In this document: piece after piece, positions 15,129 to 15,209 of the stretch | How the letters are laid out: the number at the start of each line of letters is the position of its first letter | How positions within the stretch are numbered: position 1 is the first letter of the stretch | The notes under the pieces: generated by a model | Told to the model about the DNA's origin: nothing | The model's database searches: none | Seen by the model: only the letters and a program-made list of their open reading frames with translations | Program-made: the position numbers and the translations under genes | DNA from: a phage | Direction: 5' to 3' (one strand) | DNA: 39,092 nucleotides | Sequence record: PZ452614.1

Positions 15129-15209
15129 TTACCTGAAAGGTAATAATTCGTGCGTTAAATGTCAACTATCTACGATAAATAAATCATATGTGGTTAAATT
15201 GGTAATAAT
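15129..15209 (+). promoter_or_regulatory. Regulatory region before the portal operon: TTACC-N5-GGTAA site plus ATGTGGTT / GGTAATAAT motif
   Basis: Site 15129..15143 (perfect); ATGTGGTT 15188..15195; GGTAATAAT 15201..15209. Confidence 0.45.

Follow-up and report, generated by a model that had tools for sequence, protein, structure and literature searches.

Phages of the genus Uetakevirus, the epsilon15-like temperate podoviruses, carry a repressor, Rep, with a 17-bp operator of the form ATTACC-N5-GGTAAT. In phage P1, late promoters consist of a -10 hexamer and a 9-bp inverted repeat, the '-22 region', which is bound by the activator Lpa and is found in 11 late promoters (PMC10695390; P1 record). 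The stretch separating the -35 position from the -10 in phage late promoters is where Q binding elements (QBEs) and the AlpA binding element are found (PMC9371919), and class II activator sites, such as those of CRP and FNR or of lambda CI at PRM, are centred near -41.5. Here we describe a 14-bp quasi-palindrome, hereafter the 14-mer, in a phage DNA of 39,092 nucleotides (PZ452614.1; this whole stretch is the window), where one copy precedes the gp3/portal gene. The 14-mer has dyad symmetry, is under selection, sits within promoters, and is linked in position to Rep operators. Judged by comparison of sequences, it is a genus-wide cis-regulatory site of epsilon15-like phages, and a phage regulator, not DnaA, probably binds it.

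The window corresponds to the Uetakevirus Escherichia phage phiV10 (DQ126339.2), rotated so as to start at record position 27216. Relative to record positions 27216-39104 it is 12 bp shorter; the alignment contains a single gap, within window positions 1-11877, placed between rep and p55 from coordinate offsets, and is otherwise 100% identical. Feature maps were taken from the record annotations of phiV10 and epsilon15 (AY150271.2), and seven genomes were compared: phiV10, epsilon15, SPC32H, PAT1, Tyrion, BUCT554, and BUCT711. A 14-column matrix was derived from 27 sites in the six genomes other than phiV10, the window itself not being used for training, and 300 Markov shuffles served as the control. 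As a population sample we used 200 IMG/VR loci, and 164 portal- or tailspike-type modules for operator distance. Membership in the 14-mer family was defined by a score of at least 12 bits with the matrix from the other genomes, an intergenic position, and a class-specific distance from an operator.

The consensus of the 14-mer in the seven genomes is A-W-Y-C-A-T-A-T-N-T-G-G-T-T; its arms, AACCA/TGGTT, stand 4 bp apart and its centre is conserved. Four strong sites occur in the window, before the lysis genes (36613, 22.9 bits), the tailspike gene (32795, 22.4 bits), gp3/portal (15182, 20.4 bits), and p42 (5917, 19.6 bits), followed by sites at the antirepressor module (32416, 14.8 bits), PL (4758, 12.7 bits), and DUF1064 (7886, 8.1 bits). 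Nine strand-hits exceeded 14 bits, where the shuffles gave 0.44 on average and never more than 3, and all four strong sites lie within the 7.5% of the window that is intergenic. The same sites stand at orthologous positions in the seven genomes, whose repressors are 42-78% identical. Pairwise identity amounts to 86-89% within the 14-mer, 50-72% in the DNA between the 14-mer and the operator, and 28-58% upstream of the operator. The consensus is unchanged in phages whose Rep is just 42% identical, as is the operator core. Among the 200 IMG/VR loci, position 9 may be any of the four bases, and TGGTT and CATAT are invariant. The sites at 15182, 32795, 36613, 5917, and 4758 have both the score and the position of the family; the site at 7886 has the position only.

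A preliminary description of this DNA had presented the motif as a 9-10-mer; the actual unit is the 14-bp quasi-palindrome, of which ATATGTGGTT represents the better-conserved right half plus the centre. An exact TATGTGGTT starts on the plus strand at 7891, 15187, and 32800, hence exact matches to ATGTGGTT begin at 7892, 15188, and 32801, and the variant ATATGGTT occupies 5923-5930 and 36619-36626. These two octamers are interchangeable at orthologous sites. The positions given earlier, 7892, 15188, 32801, and 5923, are accurate, save that the lysis site begins at 36619 and not 36621, a shift of 2; the copy listed at 8306 (TATGTGGAT, 8306-8314) scores below 8 bits with the family matrix and falls outside the family. 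The number of copies is not significant by itself. A single strand of the window has 412 different 9-mers present three or more times, compared with about 201 in shuffles, so three copies of a 9-mer mean little by themselves, and when one mismatch is allowed, 15 matches are observed where 8.3 are expected. The case for the motif rests on the cross-genome matrix, intergenic placement, and orthologous conservation, not on word count.

The 14-mer lies in or against the core of the p42/replication, DUF1064/ruvC, gp3-portal, tailspike, and lysis promoters, that is, of all but the PR/PRM switch; in some members it is also found at PL and at the C4-antirepressor promoter. The rep-cro switch region, with its three operators, has no 14-mer in any of the seven genomes. 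The portal, tailspike, and lysis units need a promoter of their own because they follow leftward genes, and it has to fit within a short intergenic region; the p42 and DUF1064 units need one because they follow terminators. The motif thus precedes rightward units that need their own promoter, and its promoter association, as first proposed, stands. At the ruvC (DUF1064) site of Tyrion the 14-mer is present in flipped orientation, and recognition therefore seems to be orientation-independent.

We propose that a dimeric regulator of the phage, distinct from Rep and Cro, recognises the 14-mer and places the late promoters under positive control, a reading to which we assign a probability of roughly 45%. 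A dimeric phage-encoded protein, neither Rep nor the Cro-like p41, would occupy the 14-mer. At the late promoters, where the 14-mer covers about -33 to -20, the bound protein would replace recognition of the -35 and turn transcription on; at PL and at the promoter of the DUF1064 unit (P_DUF1064), the same protein in the 17-bp spacer would turn consensus-type early promoters down. Protein binding, the non-Rep identity of the protein, and its activating effect are what we infer from the sequence. We put forward still more tentatively the wider view that the 14-mer is the site of a late-gene regulator, defines a promoter class in which a dimeric factor occupies a palindrome over the -35 position and the spacer, held in strict register with repressor operators, and lets the same factor shut early promoters.

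The preliminary description had also considered that the sites might be a set of weak DnaA boxes, which would recruit host DnaA. Indeed, TGTGGTTAA at 15190 (15190-15198) agrees with TGTGGATAA at 8 of 9 positions, and a perfect DnaA 9-mer does exist at the 8306 site, located at 8308-8316. However, the family consensus violates the DnaA consensus TTATCCACA, which one copy matches at 8 of 9 positions: the conserved T at the sixth base conflicts with both the strict and the relaxed form, and no 14-mer fits either TTATCCACA or the relaxed TTWTNCACA / TGTGNAWAA. The TGTGG core is not conserved, position 9 being A, G, T, or C at orthologous sites, and the orthologous and population variants ATATGGTT, ATAAGGTT, ATACGGTT, and ATCTGGTT indicate that TGTG is not under selection. 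Nor are boxes enriched, since the window contains four relaxed boxes against 3.9 expected, none of them a 14-mer, and the relatives do not have the perfect box of 8308 at the corresponding position. By consensus, variation, and lack of enrichment, the idea is refuted, and we give it practically no credence. The perfect box TGTGGATAA of the window is intergenic, before an eae-like gene; the perfect box of epsilon15, SPC32H, and PAT1 is instead within the replication gene, and Tyrion, BUCT554, and BUCT711 have none. Of other known sites, none of those for IHF, CRP, Fis, LexA, or sigma-54/32/E/28 fits the 14-mer, as compared by eye with the consensus sequences.

The GGTAAT that follows some copies of the motif had been taken for a separate promoter element. 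It proved to be one arm of the palindrome TTACC-N5-GGTAA, which occurs 14 times in the window (nine perfect copies and five with one mismatch), at PL, in the rep-cro region, and before p42, DUF1064, terS, portal, tailspike, and lysis genes, and further upstream of the antirepressor module and near attP. Because the orthologous palindromes of epsilon15 are annotated as protein_bind 'repressor' (e.g., 2931-2947 before gp3/portal), the GGTAAT element is a half-site of the Rep operator; Rep binding itself is taken from this record annotation and a second-hand description. This operator half of the finding is thus already known and annotated. Five nucleotides past the motif at 7892 stands a complete palindrome (7905-7919), and the same distance past the motif at 32801 a second GGTAAT (32814-32819). 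Read as operators, 15191-15205 (TGGTT-AAATT-GGTAA) and 32804-32818 (TGGTT-TTTCA-GGTAA) have the right arm only, as does 15196-15210; full operators near 14-mers start at 15129, 32754, 36569, 5897, 7843, and 7905. The operator core is identical across all seven genomes, which fits the recognition-helix region of Rep, NLVNRW, invariant in repressors otherwise 42-45% identical.

Every 14-mer keeps a fixed register with an operator, the centre-to-centre distance being invariant per site class in all genomes compared. It is 52.5 bp for the portal class in all seven genomes, 40.5 bp for the tailspike class in seven, and 43.5 bp for the lysis class in six; it is 19.5 bp for the PL and p42 classes and also for the DUF1064/ruvC class, where the operator lies on the opposite side. 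At the tailspike site the distance is kept despite intervening DNA that is just 50% identical. The same offsets predominate among the IMG/VR loci, and 163 of the 164 portal- and tailspike-type modules have an operator within one base of the class distance (110 at 52.5 bp, 52 at 40.5 bp, and one at 41.5 bp).

This coupling also suits an explanation centred on Rep, in which Rep (or the Cro-like p41) would use the 14-mer as an accessory site of non-canonical sequence and all lytic promoters would be repressed directly, without an activator. One pair of DNA-binding domains of a Rep tetramer would then sit on the operator and the other pair on the 14-mer or the GGTAAT half-site. SPC32H Rep is described second-hand as a tetramer whose DNA-binding domain pairs are drawn from different dimers (PMC9638917), and such a two-headed protein suits spacings of 19.5, 40.5, 43.5, and 52.5 bp, all near whole helical turns, the shortest of which resembles the 17-18 bp between tandem operators at O1-O2 and terS. 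The operator (ACC-N5-GGT) and the 14-mer (ACC-N6-GGT) share an ACC...GGT core, a position over the -35 or spacer is the usual place for a repressor, and p41 has the same distribution as Rep, 37 phage records that are, with one exception, Uetakevirus-type. A binder other than Rep or Cro is nevertheless favoured, because the arms of the 14-mer (half-site AACCA or ATCCA) differ from TTACC at near-invariant operator positions, because the arm spacing differs by 1 bp, because the CATAT centre of the 14-mer is conserved whereas the N5 centres of operators are free, and because the rep-cro switch region lacks a 14-mer. Moreover, at p42 the operator would lie near -60 and the 14-mer near -40, poor positions for occlusion, and the 14-mer consensus stays the same where Rep is just 42% identical, a point blunted by the operator core staying the same too. 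We regard the Rep-centred explanation as the chief alternative and as somewhat unlikely.

Operators also recur in patterns of their own. Pairs 62 bp apart bracket PL (4738-4814) and the DUF1064/ruvC promoter (7843-7919) in all seven genomes, the PL pair of BUCT711 being 63 bp apart. The rep-cro region and the DNA upstream of terS hold tandem operators at 17-18 bp spacing, or 20 bp for the terS pair of BUCT554. These spacings suggest that one Rep tetramer may bridge two operators. The distant myovirus Psychrobacter phage pOW20-A encodes proteins homologous to p41 (48% identity) and to the N-terminal domain of Rep (38%), and the operators in its cI-cro region (9604-9740) have the same core, TACCTGTCAGGTA and TACCTAGCAGGTA. 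Given these shared immunity genes and operators, the module is older and more mobile than the genus Uetakevirus.

At the gp3/portal unit the 14-mer AATCATATGTGGTT (15182..15195, plus strand), orthologous in all seven genomes, includes ATGTGGTT at 15188-15195 and is followed by AAATT (15196-15200) and GGTAAT (15201-15206). The latter belongs to GGTAATAATTTAAT (15201..15214, plus strand), which reads as the right-arm half-site of a Rep operator placed over the candidate -10s TAATAA, TAATTT, and TTTAAT, 7, 10, and 13 nt past the 14-mer; the block is 94% conserved in the seven genomes. The Rep-type operator TTACCTGAAAGGTAA (15129..15143), whose ortholog is the annotated epsilon15 site mentioned above, contains the -10 TACCTT (15142-15137) of a conserved leftward promoter with the -35 TTGACA (15165-15160) at 17 bp. 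This promoter faces tRNA-Arg and p03 and appears to serve both. The tRNA-Arg gene (anticodon tct, 14730-14806, minus strand) overlaps the annotated plus-strand open reading frame (ORF) PhiV10p04 (14549-14800), which for this reason is probably no gene.

Before the tailspike gene the 14-mer ATCCATATGTGGTT (32795..32808, plus strand) is followed by GGTAATAGAAT (32814..32824, plus strand), an operator-type half-site over the likely -10 TAGAAT (32819-32824). Across the phages this -10 reads TAGAAT, TACAAT, or TAAACT, with T-12, A-11, and T-7 kept, and the -10-like hexamers in the range 7-10 nt past the 14-mer are TAATAG or TAGAAT. The interval separating the tailspike gene from the leftward ant-like gene holds the Rep-type operator TCACCTGAAAGGTAA (32754..32768), which overlaps the -35 region of P_ant, a conserved leftward promoter (-10 region TGCTGGATAGT). 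A LexA box, CTGTATAAATACACAG (32699-32714), precedes the leftward ant-like gene p24, and P_ant with its LexA box and Rep-type operator matches the LexA-controlled antirepressor known from SPC32H.

The lysis cassette is preceded by a perfect palindrome, AACCATATATGGTT (36613..36626), which scores equally on both strands. The predicted -10, TATAAT (36634..36639, plus strand), begins 7 nt past it, and the promoter scan gave TTAACC-17-TATAAT with 10 of 12 matches, the -35 position TTAACC (36611-36616) overlapping the 14-mer. In the other genomes the -10 is TATGAT and the -35 position is poor. The extended -10 earlier noted here does not hold up, as the sequence reads TGTG-TATAAT with the TG one position off register, and the scan found no TG. 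The Rep-type operator TCACCTATCGGGTAA (36569..36583), between the leftward oac and the lysis genes, adjoins a -10-like hexamer directed at oac. The lysis leader (36645-36688) is conserved and contains TCACC-AACTA-AGGGG, with an operator-like left arm, centred at 36652 and 76 bp from the centre of the upstream operator. It also holds a strong Shine-Dalgarno sequence for a 6-codon mini-ORF from ATG 36666 to TAA 36686 (MHSKRW), which stops 2 nt before the annotated start of p27; the upstream ATG is conserved in all relatives.

All three late sites thus have a -10-like hexamer 7-10 nt past the 14-mer and a -35 position that lies inside the 14-mer and is poor in most genomes; the portal and tailspike core promoters, which are predicted, have weak -35s. 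Read on the opposite strand, the late-site operators belong to conserved leftward promoters, and because these neighbouring operators serve leftward promoters, none of the three late promoter cores is covered by a full operator. Late promoters must be silent in the lysogen, and with poor -35 hexamers and cores free of a full operator this favours positive control. It is also favoured by precedent, since to our knowledge every well-studied phage controls its late genes positively, P1 with its Lpa being one example.

At the early and middle sites the geometry differs. The p42 14-mer AACCAAATATGGTT (5917..5930, plus strand; seven genomes) lies past the tR terminator (5863-5882) and before p42 and the replication genes, starting 5 nt past the operator 5897-5911. 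Its last two T open a conserved TTGATC, with a conserved CAAAAT 16-17 nt on, and we read by eye a candidate promoter TTGATC-17-CAAAAT (5929..5957, plus strand); GGTTGATC and CAAAAT are conserved in the alignment of this region. With the candidate -35 sharing its first two bases with the end of the 14-mer, the centre of the latter would lie near -40. Within the dnaT-like replication gene p43, at 6462-6672, six or seven iterons of the form (A/C)CC(A/G)AAAACGGGA recur at 18-24 bp spacing, a likely replication origin.

The DUF1064 copy in the window, TGTCTTATGTGGTT (7886..7899, plus strand), is weak, with only its right half good, and the orthologous site in the other genomes scores 12.8-22.1 bits. 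It is flanked by operators at 7843-7857 and 7905-7919, and P_DUF1064, identified by eye, runs rightward as TTGATT (7877-7882)-17-TTTAAT (7900-7905), in full TTGATT-tcg-[14-mer]-TTTAAT. Similarly, PL reads leftward as TTGACA-tca-[14-mer]-AATTAT (-35 4780-4775, -10 4757-4752), with the degenerate 14-mer ATGCGTATCTGGTT (4758..4771) in the spacer and operators at 4738-4752 and 4800-4814; in Tyrion, BUCT554, and BUCT711 this site reaches 17-24 bits. At PL and P_DUF1064/ruvC alike, therefore, a good sigma-70 promoter has a 17-bp spacer that ends with the 14-mer. The plus strand of the PL region (4758-4814) mirrors the p42 layout, with operator, 5 nt, 14-mer, GGTTGATG, 18 nt, AAAAAT, and operator, and might hold a rightward promoter facing PL and antisense to rep.

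Such placements raise the question of whether the 14-mer simply belongs to the sigma-70 core, as a degenerate -35 joined to a preferred spacer sequence, kept by descent from one module and recognised by no binder. Its left part does coincide with -35-like hexamers (TTAACC at lysis; TTCATA or TCCATA at tailspike), its last TT begins the TTGATC of p42, and the PL-region and p42 modules resemble paralogues. Yet the best-conserved parts, TGGTT and CATAT, lie in the spacer, where sigma-70 makes few specific contacts; the element is symmetric about a dyad and functions whichever way it points; most genomes have a poor -35 position; and the register with respect to the -10 differs between promoters. 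Taken together, we find a binder-free sigma-70 origin rather improbable.

A further 14-mer-like sequence, AACCTTATCTGGTT (32416..32429), directly precedes the -35 of a promoter predicted to run leftward and is also present in Tyrion. It falls partly inside the 3' end of the ant-like ORF, and because it is partly coding its membership in the family is uncertain. The promoter, TTGCAA-17-TATATT (32416..32388; promoter scan), would serve an isrK/C4 RNA and Bro-type antirepressor module, and its -10 adjoins a Rep-type operator at 32374-32388. On the minus strand, Rfam identifies the C4 antisense RNA RF01695 (77.7 bits, 32155-32240) and the Hfq-binding isrK RNA RF01394 (75.9 bits, 32265-32340), both upstream of the leftward Bro-N antirepressor-like gene p23 (31523-32107). 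The C4/isrK/p23 segment of phiV10 looks like a P1/P7 immI-like module.

Several observations weigh against the regulator proposed here. The centre of the 14-mer varies from about -26 at lysis and portal and -26 or -29 at tailspike to -19.5 at PL and P_DUF1064 and about -40 at p42, so varied a register being unusual for a single activation mechanism. The 14-mer is always operator-coupled, at near-integral helical turns, which a Rep-centred explanation fits too, and the portal and tailspike promoters carry a GGTAAT Rep half-site over the -10, through which Rep might repress them directly. Finally, the candidates compared yielded no binder: a p55 homologue occurs in phage ZF40 without the motif, and no likeness to Lpa was found. 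The earlier suggestion of an activator-dependent or modified promoter class, with the motif as its -35-region element, fits the late sites, where the motif overlaps the -35 position, the -10 is recognisable, and the -35 is poor; it does not extend to the whole family, the register with the predicted core being non-uniform.

Comparison with the systems outlined above reveals partial likeness in each case. The Rep operator supplies the GGTAAT arm and the fixed register, but its arms, gap, and free centre set it apart from the 14-mer. Much as in P1, several predicted late promoters dispersed in a temperate phage genome share an inverted repeat near a -10-like hexamer, apparently in place of a good -35. 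In contrast to P1, the phiV10 repeat is 14 bp long and centred further upstream at the late promoters, the sequences are unrelated, and the 14-mer is coupled to repressor operators and found in the spacers of early promoters as well. Class II geometry is approached at the p42 promoter, as deduced above, and at the C4-antirepressor promoter, where the 14-mer adjoins or overlaps the -35 with its centre at about -40 to -41; at the late promoters, which are predicted only, the centre lies about 12-15 bp closer to the start.

The likeness to QBEs and the AlpA binding element invites a different function, that of a loading site for a Q- or AlpA-like processive antiterminator allowing read-through of late-operon terminators. 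The lysis and portal sites do fall between the -35 position and the -10, as those elements do (PMC9371919), the epsilon15 and phiV10 records mark terminators both inside the late operons and between them, and the phage encodes an AlpA-family helix-turn-helix protein, p36. However, the 14-mer is symmetric, which is atypical of QBEs, no Q-like gene was recognised, and inspection of the predicted initially transcribed regions disclosed no convincing -10-like pause element. p36 is a protein of 82 amino acids with an N-terminal Phage_AlpA helix-turn-helix and is more likely of the excisionase type; AlpA of P. aeruginosa is larger and has a C-terminal helix-turn-helix (PMC9371919). With the different geometry at PL, P_DUF1064, and p42 in addition, an antiterminator role strikes us as very unlikely.

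If a dimeric regulator does bind the 14-mer, its gene may be sought among those shared by these phages. p41, a helix-turn-helix protein, is encoded by the sole gene between PR and its terminator. In pOW20-A its homologue occupies the Cro position, adjoining TACC-N5-GGTA operators, and that phage has no 14-mer; p41 was rejected as the binder on this ground and is probably a Cro acting on operators. p55, encoded just before terS and assigned to PHROG 536 ('transcriptional regulator'), has a strand-helix-helix pattern followed by a Cys-rich tail. It was set aside since a 63-66% identical homologue exists in Pectobacterium phage ZF40, which lacks any 14-mer or operator, although this is a weak negative because residues of the putative DNA-reading strand differ; a single-sequence structure model of p55 had a predicted local distance difference test score (pLDDT) of 44, too poor for use. 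The remaining candidates, p34 (PerC-like), p36, p38, p39, and p42, are conserved in all seven genomes. Among them p42 is a small Cys/His protein of a widespread family often labelled endonuclease VII/HNH, whose distribution is uninformative. BLASTP of P1 Lpa against p55 and p42, the only two proteins compared, showed no similarity. A scan of viral contigs with the Rep alignment returned only identical repressors of E. coli prophages and no relative of another immunity type in which motif and operator might be uncoupled.

The 14-mer is not annotated in the epsilon15 or phiV10 record, and text searches for the motif and for work on epsilon15-like late promoters, whose coverage did not include the primary epsilon15 and SPC32H papers, returned no description of it or, in the accessible literature, of how the late genes of this group are switched on. 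The epsilon15-like group comprises phiV10, SPC32H, SPN1S, TL-2011b, and many prophages of E. coli, Salmonella, and Klebsiella; its members are used as reporter and typing phages and are models for repressor-antirepressor control. As a short, testable element at every middle and late promoter, the 14-mer makes late-gene control in these phages approachable, and it could guide the choice of strong, well-timed promoters for engineered reporter phages. Should the 14-mer instead be an auxiliary Rep site, the operator map of an unusual tetrameric repressor would still be refined. If the 14-mer is indeed the site of a separate regulator, it would provide a handle on late-gene timing in a group with no recognised homologue of Q, Lpa, or Ogr.

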